Under the pieces are notes generated by a model. That model did no database searches and was not told where the DNA came from. It was given only the letters and a program-made list of their open reading frames with translations. Below, one piece after another: positions 13,759 through 61,488 of a stretch of 64,000 nt of DNA; position 1 is the stretch's first letter, and each line of letters begins with the position of its first letter. Made by a program: the position numbers and the translations under genes. Source of the stretch: Candidatus Lloydbacteria bacterium RIFCSPHIGHO2_02_FULL_50_18 (lineage in GTDB: Bacteria; Patescibacteriota; Minisyncoccia; Phycocordibacterales; UBA6899); the NCBI GenBank assembly GCA_001821395.1, contig MHLM01000001.1, forward strand, positions 144,021 to 208,020. The letters are read 5' to 3'.

Positions 13759-13762
13759 ATCG

Positions 13763-14050: not shown

Positions 14051-14238
14051 ATTTTATCATATCAAAAAGTATAGTGCGAACAGCCGGACTCCACTATGTC
14101 GTACCTGATCGACAACATATCGTTACAGAGACACATCTTTACCAGGATCTCGATCATCAATTCAAAACGATGAGCTGTGACCATAATGACCCAGCGACTC
14201 TGCTCAAAGAAAAACCGGCGTTCGCCGGTTTTTCTTTA

Positions 14239-16923
14239 TTACACCTTCACATTGGACTTCACTCTCACTTTTGAGCGAATGGGTTCTCTCTTTTTGTCCA
14301 CCTTGATGTCGATCTCTTCGCCTTTCATTCCGACAGTGACTAACCCCCCGGACATCATACGTTCTCTGATGATCGCTGAAGCGACCGGAGTGAGGATCTT
14401 GTCTTGGATCAGTCTGCGAAGCGGCCGCGCACCATACTGCGGATTGTATCCGGCCTTTGCAAGATAGCCGAGCGCATCATTCGAGATGACCAGCTTGATT
14501 TCTTTCGTGAGCAATCGTTCACGAAGTTTTTCAACCTGTAGCGTGACAATATTCTTCAGCGCTTCAGGAGAAAGAATATCAAACATGATGATGTCATCGA
14601 GACGATTCAGAAACTCGGGTCTGAAGTAATCTTTCAACCGAAGCATCACCTTGTCCTTGGTCTGGGTATATTCCTCCGCATCGTTCGCATTACCAAAGCC
14701 GATCGTCTGCATCTTGTCGATGAATTCGCTTCCGATATTGGAAGTCATCACAATGACGGTATTCTTAAAGTTGACAACGCGACCCTTGGAATCAGTGAGT
14801 CGTCCATCGTCTAAGACTTGAAGCAGGATGTTGAATACCTCAGGATGGGCTTTTTCTATTTCGTCGAAAAGAATGACGGAGTACGGGCGATGGCGCACCA
14901 TTTCAGTCAAATTGCCTGACTCTTCATAGCCCACATAGCCGGGAGGAGCTCCGATCAGCTTGGAAACGGCAAATTTCTCCATGTATTCGGACATATCAAC
15001 ACGGATCATCGACTTCTCATCGTCGAAGAGAAATCCCGTAAGCGCCTTGGTAAGTTCGGTCTTACCGACTCCTGTTGGACCCAAAAAGAGGAACGATCCA
15101 ATCGGTCGACCCGGGTCGGCGATGCCGACACGCGAACGCTTGATAGCATCGGCGATCTTTTGGATGGCCGCATCCTGCCCGACCACGCGCTTGCGCAGCT
15201 CGTCCTCGATGCGGTTCAGCTTGGATGCCTCTTCCTCAAGCATGCGCGACAAAGGAACTCCGGTCCATTTCGAAACAACTTTGGCGATGTCCGGCTCGGT
15301 CACCTCCTCGTGCAATATCCGCCGTGAGCTTTGCAATTTTTTTAACTTGGCGGTTTTCTCGATCAGCGATTTTTCCAGTGCGGGAATTTTCCCATAACGG
15401 ATCTCTGCCGCCTTCGCAAGATCACTACGCAATTCAGCATTTTCAGCCTCGAGTCGAAATGTTTCAAGCTCTTTTTTGATATTGCGGAGTGCTAACACAA
15501 GCTCTTTTTCATTCTTCCATTTTAATTCAAATTCACGCGTTTCTTCTTTGAGATCAGCAATCTCCTTGCTGATGATCTTCATGCGGTCCTTTGCCTTTTT
15601 CCCCGCAGCGCCTTCGGACTCCTGTTTCAAGGCTTCATTTTCAATTTCCAGGCGCATGATCTTGCGATGTGTCTGCTCAAGGATCGTTGGCTTGTTTTCC
15701 AATTCGATGCGCAGTGACGATGCGGCTTCGTCGATAAGATCGACCGCCTTGTCGGGAAGAAAACGATCGGAGATATAACGGCTCGACAGATTCACTGCCG
15801 CCAAGATAGAGTCATCGGTGATCTTCACGCCGTGAAATATCTCGTATTTCTCCTTGAGTCCGCGCAAAATAGCCACCGCATCCTCGATCGAGGGTTCGTT
15901 GATATAGACCGGCTGAAAACGTCGCGTAAGCGCCGGGTCCTTTTCGATATATTTTTGATACTCCTTAAGTGTGGTCGCACCGATCGCGCGAAGTTCCCCT
16001 CGCGCAAGTGCAGGTTTCAGCATATTTGAGGCATCCATTGCCCCTTCTGCCGCACCGGCTCCGACGATAGTATGGATCTCATCGATGAAAAGAATGATCT
16101 TTCCTTCAGACCTCTCGATCTCCTTCATGATGGCCTTCAGGCGCTCCTCGAATTCTCCGCGGTATTTCGTACCCGCGATCAGGAGACCAAGATCAAGTGA
16201 AACAAGCTCCTTATCCCGCAAAAATTCGGGAATATCTCCTTTTGCGATACGTTGTGCAAGACCCTCAACGGCTGCGGTCTTTCCCGTTCCTGCCTCACCG
16301 ATGAGTATGGGATTATTTTTTGTACGACGAGAAAGAATCTGAATGATACGGCTGATCTCTTCGTCTCGGCCAACGACGGGATCGAGCTTGTCTTCCTTGG
16401 CAAGCTTCGTGAGCGAGCGCGTGTACTTTCCGATAGCGCGCATTTTCTTTTGCCCTTCGCCTTCGCCATTTCCGCTATCACGCAGCTCATAGAGTACGCG
16501 CAAAACACTTTCTTTATCGATGCGAAATTTCGCTATGATCTCCTGCGCACCTGACGGGACGTTCATGAGCGAAAGAAAAAGATGCTCGGTTGAAATGAAT
16601 TGATCGCTCAACTCCTTTGCAACCGCTTGCGACGCTTCAAGTGCTTGTGCGAGCTCGGGAGTAAGATACAGCTGATAGGACGAGGCGGTCTGACTGCTCG
16701 GCTGATTTCCCTCCTCAAGAGTCTCGATGATCGTCTCCGTCATGATGACGGGATCGATATCGAGCTTCTCGAGAATAGACAGAACCATACTCTCATCCTG
16801 GAGCACAAGACCCGCCAAAAGATGGACTGGTGTGACATGAGTCTGCCCACGCTCAATGGCGAGCTCGTGGGCACGCCTAATCGCATCTCTCGCTTTTGTG
16901 GTGAAATTATTGAATGGTGGCAT
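14239..16923 (-). CDS. clpB: ATP-dependent chaperone ClpB. Clp N-domain, two AAA+ modules (GEAGTGKTA and GPTGVGKTE), coiled-coil middle domain.
   Basis: 894-aa ORF with Walker A boxes and ClpB architecture. Confidence 0.9.
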
Positions 16924-23810: not shown

Positions 23811-23882
23811 GGCGTAGTGGCGAAGTGGTAACGCATAGATCTGCAAAATCTACATGCACCGGTCCGATTCCGGTCTACGCCT
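23811..23882 (+). tRNA. tRNA-Cys(GCA).
   Basis: Hand-folded. Anticodon loop cuGCAaa, T-arm accgg-tccgatt-ccggt. Confidence 0.8.
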
Positions 23883-23955
23883 CCCTAAAACATTTTGTTG
23901 CAAAATGTTCGGGCGATCATTTTGCAACAAAATGATTTAGCCATGAACAAATGCT

Positions 23956-24036
23956 GCCCGGGTGGTGAAATGGTATACACAGGAGACTTAAAATCTCCCG
24001 TCGCAAGGCATGTGGGTTCGACTCCCACCCCGGGCA
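23956..24036 (+). tRNA. tRNA-Leu(TAA).
   Basis: Hand-folded. Loop cuUAAaa, long variable arm, T-arm gtggg-ttcgact-cccac. Confidence 0.85.
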
Positions 24037-24038
24037 CA

Positions 24039-24205
24039 AAGTAAATAAATCCCTGATGGGATTTATTTACTTTGTGCCCGGGAGAAAGCAAGCTGCCTTG
24101 CTTTCGCGTGGGAGTCGAAGCCCGTTTCGTTATTTGCGAAGAATTCCTATTCTGAGAAAATCGAAATGGGGTGCTGACCCAGCAAAGATCGAACCTCCCA
24201 CGTTA
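24039..24205 (+). repeat. tRNA-linked element. Terminator agtaaataaatccc-tgat-gggatttatttact. Mirror tgtgcccggg[agaaagcaagctgccttgctttcgc]gtgggagtcgaagccc. Core GAATTCCTATTCTGAGAAAATCGAAATGGGGTGCTGACCCAGCA. Direct copy gatcgaacctcccacg.
   Basis: Read directly from the sequence. Confidence 0.7.
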
Positions 24206-24623
24206 ATAGTGTAAAATGAGTCAATGAATAAAAAGATCGTCGCATCACTGACTCTCTCAATCGTTGTTTCATTTCTGATAATAGTTACTGTTTCGAATTA
24301 TTTTGCTGAGAAAGAAATAGCGAACCAGCGCTCTGAATACACAACTCGAGGAATAGCCTTTGGCGAAACTCTTGCCCCGTAGGCATACCTTTTCCATATG
24401 CATGCATGGGGCTTTGTGTTCGTGAAACCAATATAAAAAATTTGCTTGTAGATGTGGTGATCTTTTGCATTCCCACATACATTCTTGTCTATGCTTTACT
24501 TGTTTTGATAGCCAAAAGAAGATCTCGAATAGGTGACGTTTCATCAAACGTAAATTAGCCCCAGTGTTCGAATCTATTGCGAATCTTCCTTGATTTGCTA
24601 TGATAGCGAAGTTAGGGAAAATT

Positions 24624-24697
24624 GCCTTCGTAGCTCAGTTGGTAGAGCAGCTCGCTCTTAACGAGACGGTCGCAGGTTCGAATCCTGCCGGGGGCAC
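24624..24697 (+). tRNA. tRNA-Lys(CTT). CCA is encoded.
   Basis: Hand-folded. Loop cuCUUaa, T-arm gcagg-ttcgaat-cctgc. Confidence 0.8.
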
Positions 24698-24700
24698 CAT

Positions 24701-24880
24701 AAAAAAATCCGCGACAAGCGGATTTTTTTATGGTGCCCCCGAAGAAGTGCCCTGCGGCACTTCTGGCAGGATTCGAAGCCGTTCTCCCATATTTCTGAAT
24801 GATTCATATCATGAGGAAATGGGAAACGGGTACTGACGCAGTAGGCGTCGAAACTCCTGCCGTGAGATTTCAAAAGACTG
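24701..24880 (+). repeat. tRNA-linked element. Terminator aaaaaaatccgcgacaagcggattttttt. Mirror tggtgcccccg[aagaagtgccctgcggcacttctg]gcaggattcgaagcc. Core GTTCTCCCATATTTCTGAATGATTCATATCATGAGGAAATGGGAAACGGGTACTGACGCAGTAGGCG. Direct copy tcgaaactcctgccgtgag.
   Basis: Read directly from the sequence; the core is about 80% identical to the unit after tRNA-Val(GAC). Confidence 0.7.
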
Positions 24881-25070
24881 AGTATATTTCGCATGCCTGC
24901 GCATGCAGGTCTTCAAAATACGAAACCCAACATGCAGAGCTTGTCTTCGTGTCCCCAATGGCATCGGTGTGATTTCGCACTTGCGAACAAGTCTATGAGA
25001 ACCCAACTGATGTCGGTTTATTCTTCCACTTCCCTTTTATCCAAATTCCAGTACTATAGCCCTACACCCT

Positions 25071-25152
25071 GCCCAGGTGGCGTAATTGGTAGCCGCGCCA
25101 GTCTTAGGAACTGGTCTCGCAAGAGGTGGAGGTTCAAGTCCTCTCCTGGGCA
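25071..25152 (+). tRNA. tRNA-Leu(TAG).
   Basis: Hand-folded. Anticodon stem ccagt/actgg, loop cuUAGga, long variable arm. Confidence 0.8.
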
Positions 25153-25400
25153 CAAAGAAAACCGCGTAAGCGGTTTTTGTGTGCCCAGAGCGACTGAATA
25201 CTACAAAGAGTACTTCATTTTTCTAAAGCAGAATACTGCTAAGAAAAATTGGTCGCACCACAGAGAGTACTTCATTTTTCTAGAGCAGAATACTGCTAAG
25301 AAAAATTGGTCGCTGCTTCAGTCGCGCGAGAGGACTTGAAGCCGTTCTCCTGTATTTTTGAAGATTTCTTAATCTGACAGGTAGCCCAAATCTTGCACGC
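25153..25400 (+). repeat. tRNA-linked element. Terminator aaaaccgcgtaagcggtttt. Mirror tgtgcccagag[~130-nt insert]gagaggacttgaagcc. The insert is a hairpin (gcgactgaa ... ttcagtcgc) whose loop holds 2 x 52-bp tandem repeats (AGAGTACTTCATTTTTCTARAGCAGAATACTGCTAAGAAAAATTGGTCGC). Core spacer GTTCTCCTGTATTTTTGAAGATTTCTTAATCTGACAGG.
   Basis: Read directly from the sequence. Confidence 0.65.
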
Positions 25401-25438
25401 CAGTCTCTACGTAATCATCATGGATAGATTCATGATGA

Positions 25439-27166
25439 TCATTCATTTCCCATCAATTCGTTTATTTTAGCCGAAGTGGTTTTACCAACATATCCGGTCC
25501 CCCTAACAAGACCCCAGGGCGCTAAAACATCTTCGGTATATTTTTCTTGGAATTTTATAACTGCTTTATAAGTCAAGAGGCCGAAATAATCAGTTTCCTT
25601 ACCCGGAGAGCCAACACCCGAATCAGCCAATCGAGTATCGGGGTCGGAATTGAGGAAAATTTGCAAGCGTTTTATGTCTGCATTTGTTTGTCGGTATTGT
25701 CGGTATTGAGTAAATGGGTTAGTAAATGGCAAAATATTTATTCGCAAATTTTCCGTTACAGTAGTACCCGATCTTAGAACGATTATGCTTGAAGCAGTAT
25801 CTGATGATCTGCCGTAGGCAGTGTAAAATTTAACATAAACGGTATATTGTCCATCCGGACAGATTAGATTTTTAAGTGTACCGCCAAATTTTGAGCATAA
25901 GTCCCATAGCTTGAAGGCGACATAATCTTCTCGGCTGGCATCAGTGAAATCTCCAGTCATTGAAATCGCCAATTGCTTGATGTCCATTCCCGCATTAAAA
26001 CCAAGTATGACATTTCTATTTGACGTTGTGCTTGATCCGGAATTTACAAAAACCTTAAATCCACCTGTCGGCGTTATCGGCAAATTACTCCAACCTGCTG
26101 GCATACCACCTCCCCCACTTGAAGTTACAGCAGGAGTTACTAAGACGGCGTCCCAAATCAAAGTAAAATTATGAGAGTTGGAATTTCCGACGTTATCTGA
26201 GGCAGTAAAACTGATTACATAAGTTCCGTTAGTATCGACTGAGATAGTTGTGCTCGACGCGGTACCGTCTCCAAACGTTACCGCACCAGGTCCTGAAACT
26301 TTTGCCCACTGATAAGTTGAAGCGTTCATATCGCTCCCGGAATCTGAAGCTGCAGCGACTTGAGTAAATGTAGCTCCTTTATTTTGATCATCTCCAGCAC
26401 TAATGGTGGGATTTTGTTTATCAATTTTTATGATATTTGACGATTCTGTGTTCTCAATATTCCCTAAATTATCTACTGAGTAGTACCTTATATATTGCTG
26501 ACAACTAGAACCTGAGTCACACGACAAACTAACACTTGTTCCTTCAGTGGTTGGCACGCAGCTATTATTAGTGTCAACGCAATAATATGTATGCGCTATT
26601 CCGCTTCCGCTATTATCAGACGGGTTCAAATTAATAGTAAGATCTGAACTATGCCAATTATCATCAGCATTATCGGTTGTAGTTGGAGACGTATTTCCCA
26701 CTACAATCGATTCATTAAATGAAACGCTCCAATCGTAAAGGGGCAGTCCGGTACTGCCTGAAGATGGCGATACGCTCGTATCTGTATCTCGAATATTACC
26801 ACCTACGGCAGTAGCATCGCCGGCTTGTGCGCACCAAGATGCAACAACATAGCAACTCCAGGCGTATCTCAAATGTTGATCTGTGCCAGTCGGCGTATCA
26901 CTTAGAGTAATTTTTACTTGACTGTTATTATTTATAAGTTCTACTGAATCTATTGAAACACTATTGCCACCAGCCTGTGTAAATTCAAACCCATAATCAG
27001 GACGCTCCGCAACGTTGGCAGTATCAATAGCTAATGTTCCATAAGGGATATTATAATTGGCGATTATTACGTTACTCGATCTCAAAATCGATGATGGCAT
27101 GAGGGGATTCCAAGTCTGTCCCTCAAACAATACTTTATCCATAACTTTTGCAAACATCTCTCCCAT
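25439..27166 (-). CDS. C-terminal part of a giant surface protein: Ig-like/beta-rich region plus a C-terminal peptidoglycan-binding domain (YFGLLTYKAVIKFQ ... GYVGKTTSAKINEL). Probably continuous with the upstream ORF via an A8 homopolymer frameshift.
   Basis: PGBD motif. The 85-nt overlap with the upstream ORF contains A8 at 27166-27173; one extra A would fuse the two frames. Confidence 0.6.
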   Translation of the reverse strand: MGEMFAKVMDKVLFEGQTWNPLMPSSILRSSNVIIANYNIPYGTLAIDTANVAERPDYGFEFTQAGGNSVSIDSVELINNNSQVKITLSDTPTGTDQHLRYAWSCYVVASWCAQAGDATAVGGNIRDTDTSVSPSSGSTGLPLYDWSVSFNESIVVGNTSPTTTDNADDNWHSSDLTINLNPSDNSGSGIAHTYYCVDTNNSCVPTTEGTSVSLSCDSGSSCQQYIRYYSVDNLGNIENTESSNIIKIDKQNPTISAGDDQNKGATFTQVAAASDSGSDMNASTYQWAKVSGPGAVTFGDGTASSTTISVDTNGTYVISFTASDNVGNSNSHNFTLIWDAVLVTPAVTSSGGGGMPAGWSNLPITPTGGFKVFVNSGSSTTSNRNVILGFNAGMDIKQLAISMTGDFTDASREDYVAFKLWDLCSKFGGTLKNLICPDGQYTVYVKFYTAYGRSSDTASSIIVLRSGTTVTENLRINILPFTNPFTQYRQYRQTNADIKRLQIFLNSDPDTRLADSGVGSPGKETDYFGLLTYKAVIKFQEKYTEDVLAPWGLVRGTGYVGKTTSAKINELMGNE

Positions 27167-29169
27167 TTTTTTTCTTGGGTATTCACGTCCATATGGAGCT
27201 TGTCCGACCGATAATGATATTGATACTTTGGCTGGACCAAAATAATTTTTCCGGGATTATCTATATGCGCGTTTAATTGTGCTTCAGCTATTTCCCCCGT
27301 TGGCGCGGAATTCATTTGATTTATAAATAATGGGATAGTGTCGTTACGGCTAGTCAGAGTATTAAGATCGGTTTCATAATCCAACTGCCATTCTTCAAGA
27401 TAACTTTTATAATTTGCTCCGGCACCACCCACATAATCACTTTCTCCGTGAATTGAAGTAACTGCGATGGGTCGATACAGCTCGCCTAGCGTACTCTCAA
27501 CGTAAGTTTTAGTTACACTTGCCTGTGTCATACCCTTGTTATACCAAGATGTCCCCTTTTTTAAACCACTGTAGTTAGTTCCACCATGTGCATGGAGGCC
27601 AACGACAATTGGACTGAGAAGATCTTCATACGCATGAAGGCTATTGGCCATTCCTGATGAGATTGTTTCCACATTACCGCCCTCTCCTTGCCCAGACTCA
27701 ATTAATGGTATGAGCGGAGCAGCTGTTCCTTCAACTCCGGGGGTAAGCATAAGATTATTATAAGGCTGCGTAACGCTTATAGGCGGTGAAGCATAATAAA
27801 CTACGGCCAGACTTTGCCCCGTTGACAATATCTGATAGTAGGTTGTTTGCTCATTTACCGCGAAGGAAACAGTCCCGGAATTATTTGTAAGAGCAGGAGT
27901 TGCTGACACGCTTATTATATGAGGAGACCCACTCGTACTTGTAGGTGTATAGGTGAATGTTTTTGCATCTGACGAACCGGACCACGACAACGAAGTTGGC
28001 GCAAACGTTCCGGCACCAGTTGATGACGATGTAATCGTGCCGGTATATTCGCCATCAGGCGTCACAATAAAATTACCGGATGCTGTAGCCATCGTGCCAG
28101 ACGACGGGCCGGCAAAAGTAAATGATGTAGCGGGTGGCGCAAGGGTGACGACTGAAAATTCAGAACTGTCTGCGGTTGCAGGGACGCCATCGGTAACCCT
28201 GAGCTTGTAATAATAAATCGTAGCGGGAGATAGTCCGGTATCTGATAATGTGAGCGATGTTTGTCCGCTTAAAATATTCCCAACACCCGGCGTAAAACCG
28301 CTGCTTATGCTACGGTACCACTGATAAATATAGGGTGCTATTCCTCCTGTTGCTTCCGAAGATGAAAGATCGATACTTGAATCTGTTTTCTCCATTAAAC
28401 TAATTGAGCCGGCGCTAAAAGTAGAAAACGGATATTCAAGCCCTGTGCCCGAATTGTATAAACTCGTGATCTCATCTGGAGTTAGTATTTTTTTCCAAAA
28501 ACCAACAGAATCAATGCGCCCGTCCAAATACATTGTAGCACCAGAAGCCTGAAATCTCCCGATTGTAAATGCTGCGCTAGTATTTGCCGGCTCGGAACCG
28601 GCGACGCTTGTATTGGTATACGTATTATTAACAGTTATGGTATTAGTATGAGTGGTAGCATTGTGGCTACATGTGAGAAAATACCATTGGCCAATCTGGA
28701 CTCCCCCCGTTGGAGTCACATATGCATCTACCGATGGAAAAGTAGAACAGCGAAACGTGTCGGAACTAACACCGTAATACAAAGCATATTCTCCGGTGCT
28801 GCCATATTTTCCAACAAACGTCATATTTGTTGATTTGGTATCAAGATAGACCCATGCAGAAATAGTAAAATCTATACCGCCTATACTCAAACTGGGATTA
28901 TCAACGATGCTTAAATATTCTGAGTTAGCCATAGTTAACTGCGCAGAATTTCCAAGTTTGCCAACTCCTTGAGTCACCGTATTGTTGTCGGTCAGATTAT
29001 TTGAACTAACACTATCTGCTCGCGTACCACTTACCTCATCTAATTTCCAATAAGAAATAAGTGATGTGGATAAATCCGTTGCAAAAACATGAGAGAAAAA
29101 TTGTGTGTACAACGACACCGAAATTAAAAGCAGGGCAAATATTTTAAAATTTTTTCGAAAGGTTTTCAT
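27082..29169 (-). CDS. N-terminal part of the giant surface protein: signal peptide, LamG/concanavalin-like domain (DFTISAWVYLD), Ig/FN3-like Thr/Ser-rich repeats.
   Basis: Signal peptide and LamG-like motif. Confidence 0.6.
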   Translation of the reverse strand: MKTFRKNFKIFALLLISVSLYTQFFSHVFATDLSTSLISYWKLDEVSGTRADSVSSNNLTDNNTVTQGVGKLGNSAQLTMANSEYLSIVDNPSLSIGGIDFTISAWVYLDTKSTNMTFVGKYGSTGEYALYYGVSSDTFRCSTFPSVDAYVTPTGGVQIGQWYFLTCSHNATTHTNTITVNNTYTNTSVAGSEPANTSAAFTIGRFQASGATMYLDGRIDSVGFWKKILTPDEITSLYNSGTGLEYPFSTFSAGSISLMEKTDSSIDLSSSEATGGIAPYIYQWYRSISSGFTPGVGNILSGQTSLTLSDTGLSPATIYYYKLRVTDGVPATADSSEFSVVTLAPPATSFTFAGPSSGTMATASGNFIVTPDGEYTGTITSSSTGAGTFAPTSLSWSGSSDAKTFTYTPTSTSGSPHIISVSATPALTNNSGTVSFAVNEQTTYYQILSTGQSLAVVYYASPPISVTQPYNNLMLTPGVEGTAAPLIPLIESGQGEGGNVETISSGMANSLHAYEDLLSPIVVGLHAHGGTNYSGLKKGTSWYNKGMTQASVTKTYVESTLGELYRPIAVTSIHGESDYVGGAGANYKSYLEEWQLDYETDLNTLTSRNDTIPLFINQMNSAPTGEIAEAQLNAHIDNPGKIILVQPKYQYHYRSDKLHMDVNTQEKKWERCLQKLWIKYCLRDRLGIPSCHHRF

Positions 29170-29503: not shown

Positions 29504-29531
29504 TTGACTTTTCCCCTATTTTTGCTATAAT
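29504..29531 (+). promoter_or_regulatory. Near-consensus sigma70 promoter: TTGACT, 16-nt spacer, TATAAT. A second TTGACA sits at 29566. RBS AGGAG at 29590, ATG at 29600.
   Basis: Hexamers read in the intergenic region upstream of the 328-aa gene. Confidence 0.55.
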
Positions 29532-29599
29532 GCTGACAGATATTTTCGTACTATCCGTAAGGGTAGATTGACACTTTCATAGTTTTTTTAGGAGCTACC

Positions 29600-30586
29600 A
29601 TGACTATTTCTGAAAGCACCTTAGACAAGGTCGGCGCAATGGGCGCTGCATTCTCTCTCATTGACCTCATTCGCGGGTTCAGCCATGGAGGCGTTCACGT
29701 CGGCGGAGGCACGGGCGGAGTAGGTTTTCTTACTTCTCTTCTCACTGTGCTCGTCAGAGTATGGGAAGAAAAAGGCGGGAGCATGAAAGACGAAAGCGAA
29801 ATGCTCGAGTCAATGTTTGCAAACCCGCAAGCAAAGAATGAAAAACTCACACCGCAGGAACGTACCAAGATCGCGGCCGTCATCAAGGCGATGACTCCGG
29901 CAGAGCAGAAAGTGTTCCGCATCGCAATTTTTGTGATGGACCCCGATGTGACGACGATCGAAGTACCGGAGAAAAAAGACAAGGACGGCAAAGTCATCGC
30001 TGTAGCCGGAAAACGAACCGAAAAAACGGGAATTGATCCTCGGGTCAATGTCCTGCACGGTATCGCCGAGCACGTCCATGACAACCTCGATAACGTCACC
30101 GAAGTGGCCGAATTACTTCGCGGTACGGGGGCGCTGGGTGGAAACAACGAGGCACTTAAGTTTCTCGTCAAGGTACAAGTAGAGCTCAAAAAGCTTCTTT
30201 GCACGTTCTTCGGGGTCGAATCCGTCGATCTTATCACCTTCGACATGGTCAAAGAAAAGGCAACCGTGCTCATCGGAAATATCGGTGTGCCGAATGCCAA
30301 TTTGCCGGGACCTCCGGTCGGTCCGCTCATGCGAGTGGGTCGCCTCATCACGCCGGGGAGTTATCGCAATGCTCCTGCATCGAAAAGCGTGAAGTCCAAG
30401 AAAGAGGTAAGGTCGACGAGCCTGCTGAAGATGTTTGCAGTGGTAGCATGTATCACCGGCATCCTCGCTTACGGCTTGTACTTCGGAGCTTCAAAGTACC
30501 GAGCGTACCAAAGAGATACTGAGATTGACAACATCATCAACGCGTATCAACCGACCAAAACGTCGGCTGAGCAGCCGATGAAATAG
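29600..30586 (+). CDS. Hypothetical protein, 328 aa. Gly-rich N-terminus (GGVHVGGGTGGVGF), C-terminal TM anchor.
   Basis: ORF with strong promoter and RBS. Confidence 0.55.
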   Translation: MTISESTLDKVGAMGAAFSLIDLIRGFSHGGVHVGGGTGGVGFLTSLLTVLVRVWEEKGGSMKDESEMLESMFANPQAKNEKLTPQERTKIAAVIKAMTPAEQKVFRIAIFVMDPDVTTIEVPEKKDKDGKVIAVAGKRTEKTGIDPRVNVLHGIAEHVHDNLDNVTEVAELLRGTGALGGNNEALKFLVKVQVELKKLLCTFFGVESVDLITFDMVKEKATVLIGNIGVPNANLPGPPVGPLMRVGRLITPGSYRNAPASKSVKSKKEVRSTSLLKMFAVVACITGILAYGLYFGASKYRAYQRDTEIDNIINAYQPTKTSAEQPMK

Positions 30587-30604
30587 GTCTCAAGGAGAAA
30601 TCTC

Positions 30605-32227
30605 ATGAGTTTATGGAAAAAAGCAGGCTACGGCCTTTTGGGAATTTCGGCCATTCTCGGTCGAAGGACCCTCTCGTCCGCATACGACCGCCAGATCGAG
30701 GGCATTACCGACGCGCATATCAAATATGTCGGCGGCGCAATGCTCTTCGGAGTTTGCGGTCTCGTGCTTAACTTCATCTTTTTGATGAATGGGATGCACG
30801 GCATGCAAACAGCGCTCTTCGGAGTTATCTGTCTTGCGTCACTGTATTACATGATCGCGCCAAAAATGAGCATTCCGCTCATCATCGCGGCCGCAGCGGT
30901 TCATGCCGGAGAGGCGAAAGATCAAGCGAAGCTCAAACTGCTCGGCGACGGAGTGAAAGACATTGTCAATCTGGCAAGTCTGGCACTCTTTTGGATCGGT
31001 GTGTACATCGTCGGAACGATCATTGCCCCATGGGACTTGAGTTGGGAATTCTTTCTTTTCCTTCACATGTTCATCATCATGGCACTACTGCTCTTTGTGA
31101 GCGGCAAGGCATCGGTCAGCACGAAAGTGTACGATAATTGCTTCAAGTTCACCATTGCTGTGATCGTTGTCAGCGTACTCACGATCGCAATCGGACGTGA
31201 GCACGTAGGACCATTATGGGCGCAATTCTCCGCAAGCAAAACTTCTCGTATCGAGGCCAAGTTGAACGCAAGTTCGATTAAGACCGCAGACGAAGCGTCA
31301 GCCGAGTGGATTGAGAAGAATGTTCACATCGATAAGCGGACCGGTGAGCAATTCGTCATCGTTACCGACAAGGTCACCGGCAAACAAAAACCGGTCGCCG
31401 CACAGCCCTACATTGAGAGGGAGAAGCAACGCAGGAACGAAACCATCCGCTCGGTCACGGAAAAAGGCGGAAAGACCAATGCGACAAACACGAGACAGGA
31501 TAATAAGGGAGGTTACTTCTCTTATGAATACTGGAACGCAAAAGCGCATGAATGGTCGGAATCCTGGGGGGTACCACTCTTCGTCGGCATCATTGCAGTA
31601 TTGGCAATGGTCGTGGCACACTTCATTCCCGTCATCTGGGGAGGAAAGAAACTCTTTGGAAAGTCAGGTACTGAAACGGCAAAGGTTGTTAGTACGCCGA
31701 AGGAGTCCGGAAACGGACTTGTTGCCACATTACTCGTTGCGGGTGCTCTCGTGTATATTGGCTTTCAGTATACGCAAGGTGAACGAGGAGCAAAAGCCAA
31801 TATGGCACCGCAAACAAGCGTTGCGACATATGCCACACTAAAGAAAGGAGATGCCGGTCTGTGGATGGCCTACTGGAGTGACATGAACGGGCACTCCATT
31901 TACAGACTTCCTCAAGATAGATGGCATGGGCGAACTGTTTCGCTTTTGCCAGGCAGCTCTGTTTCGAATGTGTCCGACATCACGCTTGTTTTTGATCCTA
32001 ATGATCCAAGTACCAATATCTCATTTAACGGAGATTGCGTTGCCGGTAGCTACGATATTCAAAAAGAGTGCGTCGGATACTGGAGAACAGAAGTGGGGTC
32101 CGGTACTTTCAGGCTTGAATGGTGGGGAAGCCAGGAAACATTCCACATTGCACTGTTTCCGGGACAACTGCCGGCAAAAGGACAGGCACAAGCCATCAAG
32201 GAGATACGCTTCGTAAAAAAACAATGA
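30605..32227 (+). CDS. Hypothetical polytopic membrane protein, 540 aa. About 5-6 N-terminal TM helices, two further TMs, and a C-terminal soluble domain. No ATPase motifs.
   Basis: ORF with hydrophobic segments. Confidence 0.55.
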   Translation: MSLWKKAGYGLLGISAILGRRTLSSAYDRQIEGITDAHIKYVGGAMLFGVCGLVLNFIFLMNGMHGMQTALFGVICLASLYYMIAPKMSIPLIIAAAAVHAGEAKDQAKLKLLGDGVKDIVNLASLALFWIGVYIVGTIIAPWDLSWEFFLFLHMFIIMALLLFVSGKASVSTKVYDNCFKFTIAVIVVSVLTIAIGREHVGPLWAQFSASKTSRIEAKLNASSIKTADEASAEWIEKNVHIDKRTGEQFVIVTDKVTGKQKPVAAQPYIEREKQRRNETIRSVTEKGGKTNATNTRQDNKGGYFSYEYWNAKAHEWSESWGVPLFVGIIAVLAMVVAHFIPVIWGGKKLFGKSGTETAKVVSTPKESGNGLVATLLVAGALVYIGFQYTQGERGAKANMAPQTSVATYATLKKGDAGLWMAYWSDMNGHSIYRLPQDRWHGRTVSLLPGSSVSNVSDITLVFDPNDPSTNISFNGDCVAGSYDIQKECVGYWRTEVGSGTFRLEWWGSQETFHIALFPGQLPAKGQAQAIKEIRFVKKQ

Positions 32228-32239
32228 ACGTTCTTTTGC

Positions 32240-32275
32240 TCACAAGAGCAAAGACCAAGGCATGATTGCCTTGGT
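32240..32275. terminator. Bidirectional terminator aaagaccaaggc-atgatt-gccttggtctttttttt between convergent genes.
   Basis: Perfect 12-bp stem plus a T-run. Confidence 0.65.
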
Positions 32276-32311
32276 CTTTTTTTTAAAAAACAAAGTATTC
32301 AGACCTACGCC

Positions 32312-32668
32312 CTAAATAGGAACAGTTGTTTGAATAGTAGGCGCGGTACCCAGTCCGCCGAGCGGTGCAAGTCCCAATTCTGTTTGGATGAATCCGATGA
32401 TCGACCAGAGCGCTACAATCACAAAAATACCCACCATGCCCCATACGAGAAACATCCTCCCCTCCTGCACCGCCTTCTCATCATCGGCATGCCAAATGAA
32501 TTTTACGACACCCCAAAAAAATACCGCAACCGCACAACCCAACAGTACGGGCATGATGGTCTGCATGAGATTAATGAGATCATCCATGATGGTGATCACC
32601 GACGTCTGAGCAAGTGCAAATGTTGGTAAGAAAAAAAACGTACCGAGAATAAAAGATCGTTTAGACAT
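32312..32668 (-). CDS. Small secreted 2-TM protein, paralog 1 of 8. VirB2/TrbC pilin-like topology (signal peptide, TM1 FFWGVVKFI, loop HADDEKAVQEGR, TM2 WGMVGIFVIVALW).
   Basis: Paralog alignment by eye. Confidence 0.55.
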   Translation of the reverse strand: MSKRSFILGTFFFLPTFALAQTSVITIMDDLINLMQTIMPVLLGCAVAVFFWGVVKFIWHADDEKAVQEGRMFLVWGMVGIFVIVALWSIIGFIQTELGLAPLGGLGTAPTIQTTVPI

Positions 32669-32981
32669 AATTCATCAGCGTCATATCGCCGCCTATTGAG
32701 CTAATAAGGAATCGCATGATACCAAACACGGCAACCATGATGAACATGCCAATGATACCCCATATCATACCGAGACGCCCCTTATCGCGCATCTCCGCAT
32801 TATCCGGATTCCAGATATACGCGACCACTCCGTAGATAAAATAGACGGTCGCGAGTGCAAAGAGCAAAGCGATGATAGGATTCAAAATATACGTCGAGAT
32901 GTTGCCGACGAAAGTGAGCACCGATGCGGGAATCGGGGGCGCAGCTGCTTCTGCTACGCTTGGAAAAAAAATGTTTAACAT
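32661..32981 (-). CDS. Small secreted 2-TM protein, paralog 2 (start at MLNIFF; loop NPDNAEMRDKGR).
   Basis: Paralog alignment by eye. Confidence 0.5.
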   Translation of the reverse strand: MLNIFFPSVAEAAAPPIPASVLTFVGNISTYILNPIIALLFALATVYFIYGVVAYIWNPDNAEMRDKGRLGMIWGIIGMFIMVAVFGIMRFLISSIGGDMTLMNYV

Positions 32982-33084
32982 GAATAAATTATAGCATCTC
33001 AATAAAAATTGACTATCCGAATGAGCAAACAAAAACCCCCGAGAACATTCTCGGGGGGTTTTTGTAATCCTATTTTTATCAGGA

Positions 33085-33441
33085 CTAGACTCCAGGAACA
33101 GCAAATGCTGGTGGTGTTGACGTGGTTATTGTCCCAGTCAATCCAAGCTGAGTCTGAGCCCAACCAAGAATACCCCAGAGAGCGACCATGACAAAGATCG
33201 CAACCATACCCCAGATCATAAGCGTCTTACCCTGCTCCTTTGCGGCTTCATCGCTTGCATTAGCGATATATTTGACCAAGCCCCAAAAGAACGCAACGAC
33301 CGCAAGACCCATGAGTAATGGGATCAAAAGCGAGATAATACCCTGAACGCTGTTTACGAGATCGGCGATACCGGTGAGCACGGTTGCTGCAGAAGCAACT
33401 GCGGGACCCACAAGCATCATTCCGATGATAAATTTCTTCAT
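33085..33441 (-). CDS. Small secreted 2-TM protein, paralog 3 (start MKKFIIG, signal peptide ending ASA; loop NASDEAAKEQGK).
   Basis: Paralog alignment by eye. Confidence 0.55.
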   Translation of the reverse strand: MKKFIIGMMLVGPAVASAATVLTGIADLVNSVQGIISLLIPLLMGLAVVAFFWGLVKYIANASDEAAKEQGKTLMIWGMVAIFVMVALWGILGWAQTQLGLTGTITTSTPPAFAVPGV

Positions 33442-33615
33442 AGATTTGATAATAATTAATAAATACACCGCCAAAACTATAACTTAATGCTATCGCACAA
33501 ACCGATGTCAAGCAATAGAAAAAAAAGATACCTGTGGATTACTGTTTCCGTTACCCGGAATCACAAAAATCGACCTCTTCACATGCCTGATGATCATATT
33601 TTTGTACGATAAGAG

Positions 33616-33978
33616 CTAATGGATGCCGCCAGTCGAATCCACATAATCCGGTGCGCCTCCCGGCATAATCCCAAATGTATCAACAAGAAGAATTCGCACT
33701 ATTCCCCATACGGAGAAGAGCACGACGAACGCGATAATCCCCCAAATGATGAATTGCTTTCCTTTTTCACGTTCAACGGGATCGTTCGCATTACCGATAA
33801 ATTTTACGACGCCCCAGAAAAAGAACATGATGGCAGCGATCCAGAAAAATTGTCCGGCCTTCACCAAAATATTGTAGACAAGCACCTCGAGGTCAAAGAC
33901 GTCCGTGACTTGCGCGAAAACAAGGGATGGAGTGCCAAGAAGCGTCGCAATACCGAACTGTTTGTTTATTGTTCTCAT
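33616..33978 (-). CDS. Small secreted 2-TM protein, paralog 4 (loop NANDPVEREKGK).
   Basis: Paralog alignment by eye. Confidence 0.55.
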   Translation of the reverse strand: MRTINKQFGIATLLGTPSLVFAQVTDVFDLEVLVYNILVKAGQFFWIAAIMFFFWGVVKFIGNANDPVEREKGKQFIIWGIIAFVVLFSVWGIVRILLVDTFGIMPGGAPDYVDSTGGIH

Positions 33979-33993
33979 GAAAATAAAAAATAA

Positions 33994-34338
33994 TTATGAG
34001 GGCGTACTCAAAAAAGGAATACCGAACGAACCTCCAAAGAGTGTTGAATTCAAGATACCGATGAGTCCCCACATCCCAAGCACAACCGCGATACCGATGA
34101 TGGCCCACAGCAGATAGGGCTTGATCTCTTCGCGCCTTTTCTCATTATCTGAATTCATCATATAGAGCGCGATACCATATACGAGTCCGGCGATAAGCGC
34201 GGCAAAGAAAATGGAGATAATGTTCTTTAAGACTCCCAAGAGCAACTCGACGAAACTCTTGAAGTCCGTCGGCGTAGTAGCGGCAAAAGTAATAAGGGGG
34301 GAACAGAAGACTAGCGTCGCAAAGATGAATTTTTTCAT
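33994..34338 (-). CDS. Small secreted 2-TM protein, paralog 5 (start MKKFIFATL; loop NSDNEKRREEIK).
   Basis: Paralog alignment by eye. Confidence 0.5.
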   Translation of the reverse strand: MKKFIFATLVFCSPLITFAATTPTDFKSFVELLLGVLKNIISIFFAALIAGLVYGIALYMMNSDNEKRREEIKPYLLWAIIGIAVVLGMWGLIGILNSTLFGGSFGIPFLSTPS

Positions 34339-34345
34339 ATACATA

Positions 34346-34684
34346 TTAAAATAATATCGCCGTACCATATACCATGTCTGCGATGACTTTTGCACCAAGG
34401 ATAATGAGCCCGCCAACGAGTGTCCACGTGAGCCAGATCTTCGCCTTCGTCACCTGCGCTTCATCCCCCCCCGCGGTGACGAACTGAAAACCAGCATAAA
34501 TAATACAGCACGCGAGCGCGGGTATGCCGACCAGCTGCATGATCTCGATCAGCCAATAGATAAAATCCTGAAGCGTAAGAATTGAGGGAGCCGGATTTGA
34601 TAGCAGTGTCCATGATGCAGCAAGTGAAATTCTTGGTTGCGAGAGGGTGAGTGTGGCGAAAGATACTAAGGCTGTTTTTTTCAT
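34346..34684 (-). CDS. Small secreted 2-TM protein, paralog 6 (loop AGGDEAQVTKAK).
   Basis: Paralog alignment by eye. Confidence 0.55.
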   Translation of the reverse strand: MKKTALVSFATLTLSQPRISLAASWTLLSNPAPSILTLQDFIYWLIEIMQLVGIPALACCIIYAGFQFVTAGGDEAQVTKAKIWLTWTLVGGLIILGAKVIADMVYGTAILF

Positions 34685-34703
34685 AAAGGTATTGGGATTC
34701 AGA

Positions 34704-35063
34704 TCACAATGAGCTAATAGTCGCCTGTATCGCTGCGGCGATCACTTTCGCACCGAGCAGCACGAGTGCCCCCAACAGTGTCCACTTGAAGGTGGTACGA
34801 GCCTTCGCAATCTGCGCCTCATTGTCCCCCGCGGTCACAAAGAGAAATCCGCCATAAATGATGAACATCACAATAATGGGCACTCCGATAAGAAAAACGA
34901 GGTCGACGATAGCGAGCAGGAGATCGGGAATAGAGGTAATCCCACCGTAAGTGATCGGGTTTACATAGCTTGACGAAGCAGCAGACGCCGTATGCGTACC
35001 CATTAAAAGTCCGAGCGTTGTCAGGTTTAATGGTTTTGTTATGTAGTGTTGCATAAGTATCAT
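34704..35063 (-). CDS. Small secreted 2-TM protein, paralog 7 (loop AGDNEAQIAKAR; start uncertain).
   Basis: Paralog alignment by eye. Confidence 0.5.
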   Translation of the reverse strand: MILMQHYITKPLNLTTLGLLMGTHTASAASSSYVNPITYGGITSIPDLLLAIVDLVFLIGVPIIVMFIIYGGFLFVTAGDNEAQIAKARTTFKWTLLGALVLLGAKVIAAAIQATISSL

Positions 35064-35067
35064 GAAT

Positions 35068-35541
35068 TTATGGCCCCAAGAAATTAAATGACGATCCGGT
35101 ACCAAGGAAGAATTCGAGGATGAAATTAACAGTCACCCACGCCGCAAGTGCGATAATGAGTCCCCAGAACACATTCAAGAAAACGTCGTGCGCCTGTTTG
35201 ACTTGGCCTTCATTGCCACGATTGGTCACGTAGAGAAAACCGGCATAGGCGAACATGACCGCACCCAATGGTGCTGCGATCTTGAAAATGAGGAAATTGA
35301 TCACATTCTGCGCAGTCTCGATCACGTCGTTAAAATAACATTCCTCATGATTACCCGGGGTGGTAGCATTTGATGCCCAGACCAAGGGGCTCGGATCTTT
35401 GACCGCACCGTCTCCATTAATGTCAAATCCGCAAGGAATGATCGTTGACGGTGAAGCTGCGAATACAGAGAATGGGGTCACGAGTATCAAAACACCGAGG
35501 AATATCGCAGAAACAAATCGATGAGTGACACTGTTGTGCAT
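35068..35541 (-). CDS. Small secreted 2-TM protein, paralog 8 (longer N-terminal domain with 2 Cys; loop NRGNEGQVKQAH).
   Basis: Paralog alignment by eye. Confidence 0.5.
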   Translation of the reverse strand: MHNSVTHRFVSAIFLGVLILVTPFSVFAASPSTIIPCGFDINGDGAVKDPSPLVWASNATTPGNHEECYFNDVIETAQNVINFLIFKIAAPLGAVMFAYAGFLYVTNRGNEGQVKQAHDVFLNVFWGLIIALAAWVTVNFILEFFLGTGSSFNFLGP

Positions 35542-35556: not shown

Positions 35557-36876
35557 TTAGTAGCGAGACAAAGCAACGTCAAGTTCCGTGTTCAATTTTG
35601 CAACAGCCGTAGCGGTGTCATTCCTCCCTGACGAGACTGATTCGACCATCGCTTGGAATGCTTTGTCGGAAATTTCCGGCTTTGGATCAAGCCAGGTACG
35701 TGCACGAATGGCCGCTTCGAAAAATACCGCCATCGCCGCATCGGTCGGAGGAACCGCGAGCAGGTCTCTTCGAACGGGGGGCAGATTGTACGCCGCAGCA
35801 AAGTCTTTTGCGGGATTCGCATCAAAGAGCAGTTTCTGCATAGCAACAAAGGCGGTGCTTTTATTTTTGGAGGTCTTCAGCACAGCGAGACCATGCACCT
35901 TTGCAAATGTTACCTCAGCCGTCGTTCCTCGCGGTTCCGGAACCTGTGCGACCGCAAAATTCAGGTGTGGATTTTTTGCCTTGATCTCGCTATATGCACT
36001 CGCGTAATCGAAATATACCGCGAGATTTCCGTTGATGAATTCATTGCGCGAATCACTGCGCGCACGACTCCATGTAAAAATATTTTTGAGCGGATTCGAA
36101 AAATCCATAAAGAAACGGAGGGCAGAAACAACATCCTGATCGGCAACAAATTGACCGGCATCGGATTTTGCAACCATGCTCTTGGGTGTTTTCCCATTCA
36201 TCTTGACGATAGGGTTACCCACCTGAAGAAAGAGCATCGCAAGAATGTCTTTCGCATGGGTCACATTGACATACTCCCCAAATGAAATTGCGCTCTGAAC
36301 AAGTTCGGAGGTACGTACGTCGCGTTTTGTGAATTTGGGGGTAAGCGTCAAGAACTCATCCCAGAACTTGGGCACTTCGGTAACCGATGCATTGGTAAAA
36401 ATATCTCTGTTCCAATACATGACCATCGGGTCGATCGCAAACGGGAGCGCGACCAGCCCCTCATCGCGCATATATATCTCCGATGCCTGAATGAAGCTCG
36501 ATGAAAAAAGACCCGGTGAAACAGCAGTGTACGGTACCAGCTCGATCTTATCGAAATGGCGCAGAATGAGATCATCGGGCAAAAGCAGAACATCGGGGCC
36601 CGTTCCGCTTGCGAGCGCCTCAACGATATCACTATCGAAATTTTTCGGATCATGAAATTGATACGAAATACTAAAATTCTTTTTATATATATCGTTAAAT
36701 TTCTTGATCGTCTCCGAAAGACCCGCGGTGTCCTGAAAAGTACCCCATATGACGACGTTCCCCTGAGCCCCAGGAACGGTCGTGTCACCCTTTTTAGGAT
36801 CCGACGTTGCAAACACAAGAAGACCGACAACGGCCATTATTCCAAAAAAAGTAAGAAGAATCGTCTGAAATTTCAT
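35557..36876 (-). CDS. Extracellular solute-binding protein (ABC transporter SBP family 1, MalE-like), membrane-anchored.
   Basis: N-terminal TM, length and SBP-like composition. Confidence 0.6.
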   Translation of the reverse strand: MKFQTILLTFFGIMAVVGLLVFATSDPKKGDTTVPGAQGNVVIWGTFQDTAGLSETIKKFNDIYKKNFSISYQFHDPKNFDSDIVEALASGTGPDVLLLPDDLILRHFDKIELVPYTAVSPGLFSSSFIQASEIYMRDEGLVALPFAIDPMVMYWNRDIFTNASVTEVPKFWDEFLTLTPKFTKRDVRTSELVQSAISFGEYVNVTHAKDILAMLFLQVGNPIVKMNGKTPKSMVAKSDAGQFVADQDVVSALRFFMDFSNPLKNIFTWSRARSDSRNEFINGNLAVYFDYASAYSEIKAKNPHLNFAVAQVPEPRGTTAEVTFAKVHGLAVLKTSKNKSTAFVAMQKLLFDANPAKDFAAAYNLPPVRRDLLAVPPTDAAMAVFFEAAIRARTWLDPKPEISDKAFQAMVESVSSGRNDTATAVAKLNTELDVALSRY

Positions 36877-36891: not shown

Positions 36892-37452
36892 CTATGCCCG
36901 CATCTCCGTACTATTCACCTGATAAAGACCTTTCCGAAATATAAGACCATAATGAAAATTTCCCGCATTGACTGTTTTTTCAAAGGTGAAATTCAGCGAT
37001 TCAACGAGCTTTCGCGCTTCTGTTTCAGGAAACACTTGTTCGGTCGTCGGTCCCATATTATTGAAAGACGCCGTCCAGTCGATCAGCATGAGTCTTCCAC
37101 CCTGCTTGAGTACTCGGCGTGCCTCATCCAGAACGTTTTTTTTATCGGATGCCTGAAAGAGCACGTTCGAAACAACGACGACATCGCATACCCCATCGCT
37201 CAATTTCGTCCCGCCCAAAAGTTCGACATCTCCCCAGAGAAATGAAACATTGCCGATGTGCTTTTCTTTACAGGTATTTTCGAGGCGCGTAAGCAAGTCC
37301 TTTTGCACCTCGATCGCGTACACCTTCCCTGTTCCGTGCATGGCTTCTGCCGCAGCGATTGTATATGCACCCGACCCCGCGCCAAAATCTGCAACCACCA
37401 AATTATCGGCTAACCCTAATTGTTCGATATTCTTCTCCGGTGCTGAAAACAT
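36892..37452 (-). CDS. Class I SAM-dependent methyltransferase (motif I VADFGAGSG).
   Basis: Rossmann MTase motif. Confidence 0.7.
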   Translation of the reverse strand: MFSAPEKNIEQLGLADNLVVADFGAGSGAYTIAAAEAMHGTGKVYAIEVQKDLLTRLENTCKEKHIGNVSFLWGDVELLGGTKLSDGVCDVVVVSNVLFQASDKKNVLDEARRVLKQGGRLMLIDWTASFNNMGPTTEQVFPETEARKLVESLNFTFEKTVNAGNFHYGLIFRKGLYQVNSTEMRA

Positions 37453-37541: not shown

Positions 37542-37796
37542 CTATCGATAGATATCATGAGTACCCACATCAAGATAATAGATGGCATCCTTTTCTTTTT
37601 TAATGATCACCCGATAGGTAAAGTTTGCGGAAAAGGCATACCAAGATCTGAATTTTCCATGAAGTTTGTGAAACTTCAAAGATTCAGCGTCTTTTTCTTT
37701 CTCAAATAAAGATACCGCGCGAAAGACGTCATTTTGCACTTCCTCGTCGCATTTTTTGAGTGAGCGAAGGAAGCGTGCCGTATAGAGATACAGCAT
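37542..37796 (-). CDS. Type II toxin, RelE/ParE family.
   Basis: 84-aa basic protein immediately downstream of a small antitoxin-like ORF; paralog of 48753-49028. Confidence 0.6.
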   Translation of the reverse strand: MLYLYTARFLRSLKKCDEEVQNDVFRAVSLFEKEKDAESLKFHKLHGKFRSWYAFSANFTYRVIIKKEKDAIYYLDVGTHDIYR

Positions 37797-37797
37797 A

Positions 37798-38016
37798 TTA
37801 GAATTTCTTAAATAATTTCTTCAGGTCTCCTCTATACACGCGTCCGGCCTTAATGTCCGCCTCTGCTTCGTTGAGACGGCTCAGTGCGCGCTCCTCCTGC
37901 AATCGCCCAAGCGCAAAACGCACGAGATGTGCTTTCGACTCACTCGTCCCCGCTCGTAACTCTTCTTCAATGAACGACTCCAGCTCTTTGGTGATCGGTA
38001 CGGTAATTGTTGACAT
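37798..38016 (-). CDS. Antitoxin (RHH/ParD-like), partner of the RelE/ParE toxin.
   Basis: 72-aa ORF overlapping the toxin start; paralog of 48543-48752. Confidence 0.55.
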   Translation of the reverse strand: MSTITVPITKELESFIEEELRAGTSESKAHLVRFALGRLQEERALSRLNEAEADIKAGRVYRGDLKKLFKKF

Positions 38017-58878: not shown

Positions 58879-58887
58879 TCCTTGATA

Positions 58888-59400: not shown

Positions 59401-59539
59401 GATACCACGATACTAATAATGATTTTCATTGTTTTCAGTTGCATATGTTTTTTCAAAGGATTCGTAGCACAAAGGCCCTGCCAACGCAGGGCCTTTCCTG
59501 CCACTAGTTACAAACTACTTCTTTGAAACAGTGTGGGGG

Positions 59540-61348: not shown

Positions 61349-61488
61349 CTTATTTATTGCTAATCTTTTAAGACCATTAATTACTATATTTTACAAGCAT
61401 CTACAAAGAGGCACAAGGCTGATGTGCACAGCAGTGATAGCTGCTATAAAAAACGGAAACCTTTTATAGTTCCCGTTTTTAATGTGAG

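Follow-up and report, generated by a model that had tools for sequence, protein, structure and literature searches.

Tandem arrays of genes for small VirB2-like pilins have been described from the Patescibacteria, or candidate phyla radiation (CPR). In a survey of 3,035 Patescibacteria genomes, based on the Pfam families PF18895 and PF04956, Quinonero-Coronel et al. (Microb Genom 2025; PMC12102498) report VirB2-like genes in 1,948 VirB4-positive assemblies (near virB4 in 1,135 of these). They also report 441 arrays of 2–11 pilin genes in 383 assemblies, which have a mean within-array identity of 25% and are most abundant in Microgenomates and Saccharibacteria. A second study (Wang et al., Cell 2023; PMC10633639) describes a six-pilin series in the T4SS (type IV secretion system) cluster of Ca. 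Southlakia epibionticum as essential by transposon sequencing, and a 2025 review treats these pilins as the possible pilus of a monoderm T4SS (PMC12857230). Here we examine a 64-kb stretch of Candidatus Lloydbacteria DNA (contig MHLM01000001.1; hereafter the window) in which eight co-oriented paralogs occupy positions 32312–35541 of the minus strand and converge with genes for a 328-amino-acid (aa) and a 540-aa protein. We consider it probable that these genes encode pilins of the VirB2/TrbC superfamily (PF18895) and form an array of Patescibacteria type which, as proposed, serves the organism's chromosomal T4SS. An earlier note on this DNA had advanced a candidate novel envelope system and had called eight tandem paralogs unusual. 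Neither description survives comparison with the published survey, which records arrays of this kind for 383 assemblies and a size range of 2–11 that includes eight; the kind of feature is therefore already known.

Start codons of the paralogs were taken as those directly preceding the signal peptides, which yields products of 118, 106, 118, 120, 116, 112, 119 and 157 aa for pilins #1 to #8, respectively. The open reading frame (ORF) listing and our reading of the sequence thus reproduce both the number and the size range (106–157 aa) given previously, and a local pilin hidden Markov model (HMM) run over the whole window found no copy beyond the eight. Alignment and a hydropathy scan reveal a shared layout of signal peptide, variable N-terminal segment, hydrophobic helix, loop, second hydrophobic helix and variable tail. 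The loop spans approximately 12 residues of the form N-x-D-(D/N)-E...(K/R), so that the two hydrophobic segments parted by a short charged loop of the kind claimed in the earlier note are present in all eight. A Sec-type signal peptide, which the note had assigned to each paralog, ends clearly in A-x-A in seven; that of pilin #2 is short and uncharged (MLNIFFPSVAEA) and is the weakest of the set. The features by which VirB2/TrbC proteins are recognised, namely a signal peptide and two helices joined by a short hydrophilic loop in a mature protein of roughly 70–130 aa, are thus found here, with the weak signal of #2 as a qualification. The alignment also separates two subfamilies, A (#1–5), carrying FFWG(V/L)VK(F/Y)I, and B (#6–8), carrying IIY(A/G)GF-F-VTAG(G/D)(D/N)EAQ.

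Each paralog was compared with family models. The gathering score of PF18895 (T4SS_pilin) is 26.6 bits, and it is exceeded by every one of the eight: 33.4 bits for #1, 27.6 for #2, 30.6 for #3, 39.1 for #4, 29.5 for #5, 30.7 for #6, 37.1 for #7 and 32.4 for #8. That all eight should pass is a repetition far beyond chance. Matches to TrbC (PF04956, cut-off 27.9 bits) were obtained for four and lie below the cut-off; pilin #6, the most TrbC-like of the eight, scored 22.3 bits (E 1.5e-4), followed by #8 (21.9), #5 (15.6) and #2 (13.5). The UniRef name of #6 is 'Conjugal transfer protein TrbC'. All eight likewise gave sub-threshold matches to the NCBIfam model for Mbov_0395 family pilin-like conjugal transfer proteins (NF045849). 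Against all PDB sequences, a profile of the eight ranked the pKM101 VirB2 homologue TraM (8cw4) first, at a level which is not significant (E 0.33). The VirB2/TrbC-like reading of the earlier note is upheld by these comparisons, and at the level of family membership, judged from sequence, the eight proteins are pilin-like.

The genes, all on the minus strand, are read from #8 to #1. Pilin #8 (35068–35541) has a predicted N-terminal extracellular extension of about 45 aa with a conserved Cys pair. It is followed by #7 (34704–35063, with the motif IIYGGFLFVTAGDNEAQ), #6 (34346–34684), #5 (33994–34344), #4 (33616–33978, with the motif FFWGVVKFIGNANDP), #3 (33085–33441), #2 (32661–32981) and #1 (32312–32668). 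Successive intergenic gaps measure 4, 19, 1, 15, 174 and 103 nt, and #2 and #1 overlap by 8 nt; the spacing of 5–30 nt stated previously therefore applies to some junctions and fails for the gaps of 4, 1, 174 and 103 nt and for the overlap. The 103-nt gap holds a strong hairpin terminator 3' of #3 (33036–33057, minus strand; 9 bp with seven GC pairs, then a T run) and a promoter-like TAGTCA-16-TG-TATAAT (32988–33015, minus strand), which agrees at 10 of 12 positions and is the second-best site of the region. Given the two long gaps, the second with its terminator and promoter, the array probably forms three transcription units: a string running from a methyltransferase (MTase) gene through a solute-binding protein (SBP) gene and pilins #8 to #4, then pilin #3, then #2–#1. 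Pilin #3, with 174 nt upstream and the hairpin downstream, appears to be a unit of its own. The mRNA of #2 may be leaderless, as is suggested by the TG-extended -10 box, which ends only 7 nt 5' of the ATG. Beyond pilin #1, a 13-bp hairpin terminator (32250–32279, plus strand) lies between it and the convergent 540-aa gene.

Conservation of this arrangement was assessed in the window and nine further distinct loci, all of Lloydbacteria/Paceibacterota type, which were obtained by context look-ups and one species-representative genome scan; local HMMs were used for the pilins and the 328-aa and 540-aa proteins, and phmmer for flanking genes. Exactly eight pilins occur in seven of the ten genomes, the window included, and the same SBP and MTase precede pilin #8 in all seven. 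Only three pilins lie beside the 328/540 pair in the remaining loci (L002, L011 and L012), of which L011 is perhaps truncated, its contig ending about 0.5 kb past the third pilin. In L002, the only three-pilin locus compared by BLAST, the three are orthologues of #1–3; both flanks of the module are rearranged there and it abuts clpB. Precomputed PF18895 matches also exist for the orthologues in L001–L007.

For every paralog of the window, the best BLAST match in L001, L003, L005 and L007 is the gene in the same position, at 41–82% identity, as against 17–46% among the window paralogs themselves. By paralog, identity to orthologues amounts to 50–63% (#1), 61–81% (#2), 57–82% (#3, three-pilin loci included), 53–68% (#4), 41–66% (#5), 54–76% (#7) and 46–69% (#8). 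Invariant residues specific to each group of orthologues are present in both core and tail, and DNA-level repeats are almost absent from the array. As read from these sequence comparisons, the eight paralogs are old and individually maintained, which argues for distinct, non-redundant roles and against a rapidly varying cassette. Fixed structural roles, such as major and minor subunits, adaptor or tip, would fit this pattern; assignments to individual paralogs are conjecture. A candidate for the tip or adaptor is pilin #8, the N-terminal domain of which is disulfide-capable.

Departures from the common order were also seen. An unrelated gene is inserted between #3 and #2 in L003 (13506–14327; FA_hydroxylase) and in L005 and L006 (13276–13896 in L005; PEMT/ICMT-like), at the junction where the window holds its terminator and promoter. 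A gene of lipid-modifying type (fatty-acid-hydroxylase-family or PEMT/ICMT-like methyltransferase) lies within the array of L012 or directly after its #3 (13935–14762). The full Lloydbacteria-type block of 328/540 pair, eight pilins, SBP and MTase is present in L013 (CAYXYK010000006.1), a sequence labelled 'uncultured Candidatus Saccharibacteria'; this taxonomic label is probably wrong.

The earlier note had seen no VirB4, VirD4 or relaxase in the window, and we agree: Pfam searches of 30 large ORFs were negative, and phmmer with six pCF10 T4SS proteins (PrgJ, PcfC, PrgH, PrgI, PrgK and PrgL), run on every ORF of the window and of 15 loci, found no T4SS machinery in the window or near the block in related loci. 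VirB4, VirD4 and relaxase were likewise absent from the 10 kb upstream of the window, and a search for VirB4 in the 10 kb beyond each window end was empty. Apart from the array, the window is an ordinary stretch of CPR chromosome, with topA, relA/spoT, parB, miaA, alr, clpB, sodA, infB, gyrA, rpsA, pth, lepB, hisS, ftsA, ftsZ and trxB. The survey cited above does, however, list VirB4 as 'Yes' in its Table S1 for Ca. Lloydbacteria RIFCSPHIGHO2_01_FULL_49_22 (GCA_001818945.1) and two other Lloydbacteria assemblies. The earlier note had named a T4SS elsewhere in the genome as a finding that would turn the array from a new system into a component of a known one; as far as the literature shows, through this VirB4 entry, such a T4SS would be present.

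A 760-aa ORF with no Pfam match was considered as a possible ATPase and ruled out. It encodes a secreted protein (11644–13926, minus strand) in which a Cys-rich unit, C..C-x-x-YC......H..EC..FAE..G-x-I, is repeated; helical repeats come next, and the tail is rich in Pro and Gly.

The mechanism that we propose for a T4SS-serving array is as follows. Precursors would be inserted by Sec and their signal peptides removed; the window has a gene for a LepB signal peptidase. The mature proteins of approximately 90–130 aa would form two-helix membrane hairpins with both termini facing outward and the charged loop in the cytoplasm, an orientation borrowed from VirB2 biology. A chromosomal monoderm-type (MPF_FATA-related) T4SS, its VirB4 placed elsewhere in the 1.28-Mb genome on the strength of the published table, would then extract and polymerise the subunits. 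By analogy with the essential array of Southlakia, the product may be a short pilus or conduit toward a host cell, with the paralogs as major and minor subunits.

Several considerations weigh against such an account. Firstly, the word 'pilin' in PF18895 is itself a prediction, and the matches to the TrbC family all fall under that family's cut-off. Secondly, a pilus has never been seen in any Patescibacterium (PMC12857230). Thirdly, genes for T4SS machinery are missing from the window and, in every related locus, from the 10 kb around the block, and the link to VirB4 depends on a published table together with our inference that equates the genome of the window with assembly 49_22. Finally, it is conjecture which role belongs to each paralog and which to the 328/540 pair.

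That pair provides the basis for one of two unlikely alternatives. The two genes follow a sigma-70-type promoter, reported previously as near-consensus and recovered here as TTGACT-16-(TG)TATAAT (29504–29531, plus strand), with agreement at 11 of 12 positions and a TG extension; AGGAG precedes the ATG of the 328-aa gene at 29600. They lie 18 nt apart and are co-transcribed. A transmembrane (TM) scan bears out the architectures given in the earlier note, that is, a Gly-rich protein with a C-terminal anchor and a polytopic protein. In the 328-aa protein (29600–30586, plus strand), a Gly-rich N-terminus and an invariant RVWEEKGGSMKDESEMLE motif are accompanied by one C-terminal TM helix, which is missing in some homologues; there is no signal peptide. 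The 540-aa protein (30605–32227, plus strand) begins with about five TM helices, continues with a charged central region of about 115 aa and two more TM helices, and ends in a beta-rich C-terminal domain with conserved Cys478 and Cys489. The positive-inside rule would place its N-terminus inside and its central and C-terminal domains outside.

Both families are narrowly distributed. The 328-aa protein has 14 homologues in 5.8 billion clusters, all free of Pfam domains, and six loci among 185,579 species genomes, all of Lloydbacteria/Paceibacterota type. An exhaustive search for the 540-aa family gave 33 cluster representatives among 1.84 billion, and a word-indexed search with the 540-aa alignment as query returned the same three proteins. 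Neither protein has a match in Pfam, NCBIfam or PHROG, and PDB sequence profile searches gave only chance or TM-driven matches. The AlphaFold2 (AF2) model of the 540-aa protein, made from a three-sequence alignment, has a mean predicted local distance difference test score (pLDDT) of 40.7, too poor for a fold search; the low-confidence model of the 328-aa protein (pLDDT 53) gave nothing below E 2.8 when compared with the PDB by Foldseek. Sequence and profile searches gave no support for membership of the 540-aa protein in the VirB6, TrbL or PrgH families: there was no Pfam match at E≤1, the TrbL/VirB6 model included, Pfam searches of 29 family members were negative, and the probability of a match to PrgH of pCF10 was 0.1% in hhalign. 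The PDB sequence profile search of this protein also returned no VirB6-type chain, assuming that solved chains of this type are in the PDB copy used.

On the other side of the array, in the same orientation as the earlier note had recognised, pilin #8 is preceded by the two genes that open its string. The MTase, a class I S-adenosylmethionine-dependent enzyme (36892–37452, minus strand), is the first and holds the same position in all seven eight-pilin genomes. The SBP (35557–36876, minus strand) lies 15 nt upstream of #8. It is a membrane-anchored orphan protein of carbohydrate type (SBP_bac_1/8), recognised by Pfam and by weak matches to NCBIfam models of MalE/GanS type. A link from such a protein to nutrient capture is speculation. 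Between the MTase and gyrA lie genes for an 84-aa RelE/StbE-like toxin and a 72-aa ParD-like antitoxin (together 37542–38016, minus strand), which score just under NCBIfam cut-offs.

From these neighbours one might construct a self-contained Lloydbacteria surface module, in which the 540-aa protein as a VirB6-like platform and the 328-aa protein as its cytoplasmic partner would polymerise pilins #1–3 (and #4–8) independently of, or only loosely coupled to, a canonical T4SS, with the co-operonic SBP capturing host-derived sugars at the filament. The pair stands convergent with the pilins in all ten genomes, the 540-aa gene always facing pilin #1, and the pair and #1–3 stay together even through the rearrangement of L002, where no other pilins are left. 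The SBP adjoins #8 in all seven eight-pilin genomes, virB4 is found within 10 kb of none of the loci, and the 540-aa architecture recalls the 'extended VirB6' proteins of PMC12857230, which have at least five TM helices and central or C-terminal hydrophilic domains; its position beside pilin genes is also alike. We nevertheless judge such a module unlikely. Between extended VirB6 proteins and the 540-aa protein there is no detectable sequence or profile similarity (Pfam, hhalign and PDB sequence profiles), and the AF2 models (pLDDT 41 and 53) are too poor to show a fold, so that the resemblance is one of architecture and not of membership, and a VirB6-like role is only an idea. An ATPase to power extraction is absent, the 328/540 and pilin genes, being convergent, are not co-transcribed, and the ten genomes come from one narrow lineage in which synteny may be partly inherited. 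The bolder claim of a distinct Lloydbacteria organelle, with a VirB2-type filament on a non-homologous or diverged VirB6-like platform that together with the SBP captures or imports host nutrients, in place of spare parts of a canonical CPR T4SS, strikes us as improbable. In the reading that we prefer, the pair are lineage-specific partners of pilins #1–3, possibly as a membrane platform, chaperone or anchor.

The second alternative holds that the small proteins are integral-membrane components of a monoderm T4SS channel, similar to PrgF of pCF10, which do not polymerise and never leave the membrane. The loop and second TM helix do resemble PrgF marginally (E 0.019 by hhalign; E 0.005 by phmmer for the orthologues of pilin #2, the best-matching group). 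According to PMC12102498 and PMC12857230, Gram-positive T4SSs lack pili, and the former counts 627 PrgF-like proteins in CPR. However, PF18895 and TrbC score better than PrgF, which has no signal peptide of the type found here, and a single channel subunit does not readily account for eight distinct conserved paralogs whose exposed tails vary. A membrane-bound channel of this kind therefore seems doubtful to us, and a T4SS-serving pilin array remains the reading that we prefer.

The earlier note had also taken the block for an acquired island. A tRNA cluster (Cys-Leu-Lys-Leu), the 328/540 pair, pilins, SBP and MTase keep one order in related genomes: the block has the same order in ten genomes, and in L003 and L005 the 328-aa homologue has the tRNA cluster, itself in the same order, immediately upstream. 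GC content is 0.46 for the pilin array and 0.51 for the 328/540 pair, values which bracket the window mean of 0.48 (48.1%). There is no integrase in the window block, and a tblastn search with pilin #6 against 72,556 plasmids gave no match. Conserved synteny and composition thus speak against an acquired pilin block. What is unique to the window is a pair of large secreted-protein genes (LamG; PKD/OmpL47-barrel) at 25439–29169, with a GC content of 0.42, which lies between tRNA-Leu(tag) and the 328-aa gene and is absent from all related loci; a large serine recombinase occupies its position in L007. The variable or integration spot looks like the tRNA-Leu(tag) flank (23811–29169) and not the pilin block. 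This tRNA gene is at 25071–25153, near a 57-nt tandem repeat (25200–25313) and 41-nt tRNA-3'-like repeats (24768–24808 and 25331–25371).

Small two-TM proteins in tandem near a tRNA cluster with repeat scars could also suggest holins, bacteriocin-immunity proteins or effectors on an island, an idea raised in the earlier note which we regard as very improbable, since no holin, immunity or phage family was matched by the eight paralogs among Pfam at E≤1 or PHROGs, no toxin, lysin or integrase lies next to the array, no plasmid match was found, ten genomes share the gene order and copy number along with the tRNA cluster, and the GC content of the array is near the window mean, the low-GC insertion being the neighbouring pair of large surface-protein genes.

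A further surface-protein cluster lies elsewhere in the window (58216–62742, minus strand). It encodes two Ice_binding-like proteins, one with a PG-binding domain and one with DUF7507/CLIPPER and SpaA-like domains; sortase and cupin genes, seen in L009, adjoin it. A sortase-dependent surface structure, distinct from the pilin array, may be encoded here.

A large part of the diversity of uncultured bacteria belongs to the Patescibacteria, which live on other microbes, and T4SS and pilins are essential in the one system tested. While the present locus is no new kind of system, it offers a clean comparative case, in that eight individually conserved paralogs argue for fixed structural roles as opposed to antigenic variation. 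Three aspects are new: all eight paralogs have stable positional orthologues; an orphan sugar-type SBP and an MTase precede pilin #8 in every eight-pilin genome; and pilins #1–3 have invariant, lineage-specific partners in the 328/540 pair. The 328-aa and 540-aa proteins and the SBP are concrete candidates for missing accessory factors of a CPR pilus.

Among known systems, the nearest are the VirB2 arrays of Patescibacteria themselves, as described in PMC12102498 and PMC10633639, including SEML1_0006–0019 of Southlakia ML1 and the 'Sec-secreted array' of Nanosynbacter lyticus TM7x. The survey defines an array as at least two PF04956 or PF18895 genes of low identity within a CPR genome, which either stand in tandem or have one non-pilin gene between them; here there are eight. 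The same Pfam families are involved, and in both cases the genes are tandem, chromosomal and without a relaxase nearby, their paralogs divergent (approximately 25% identity there, 17–46% here). Unlike the virB4-adjacent arrays, the present one is not beside virB4; remote pilin genes are, by the counts of that survey, common but less studied. The lineage also differs, being Lloydbacteria (Paceibacteria) as opposed to the published peak in Microgenomates and Saccharibacteria, and the accessible parts of those sources mention no partners such as the orphan SBP, MTase and 328/540 pair.

With the TrbC/VirB2 pilins proper (PF04956; T-pilus VirB2, RP4 TrbC and pKM101 TraM), the paralogs share a long signal peptide, a mature length of approximately 70–130 aa, two helices and a short charged loop. 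They differ in their sub-threshold PF04956 scores and monoderm host, and VirB5, a cyclisation signal and an outer-membrane core are not evident. PrgF (MPF_FATA) and the Mbov_0395 proteins of Mycoplasma integrative and conjugative elements are small two-TM conjugation proteins of monoderms with the same N-x-D-D...K-G loop; all matches to them are below cut-offs, and PrgF is a single-copy protein of 75 aa with no N-terminal segment. The PrgF gene itself (pCF10, our locus L010, 19545–19772) has the N-D-D...K-G loop and second helix in common with PF18895 pilins, a shared sequence feature which hints at PrgF as the possible VirB2 counterpart of monoderms.

Tandem and variable VirB2 paralogs in host-dependent bacteria are also found in the trwL (VirB2)/trwJ (VirB5) arrays of Bartonella Trw and the virB2 paralogs of Anaplasma, which have been proposed to broaden host binding (PMC12857230 and PMC12102498). 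There, a complete diderm T4SS locus surrounds the arrays, which are read as variation cassettes, whereas the paralogs of the Lloydbacteria array are conserved as positional orthologues.

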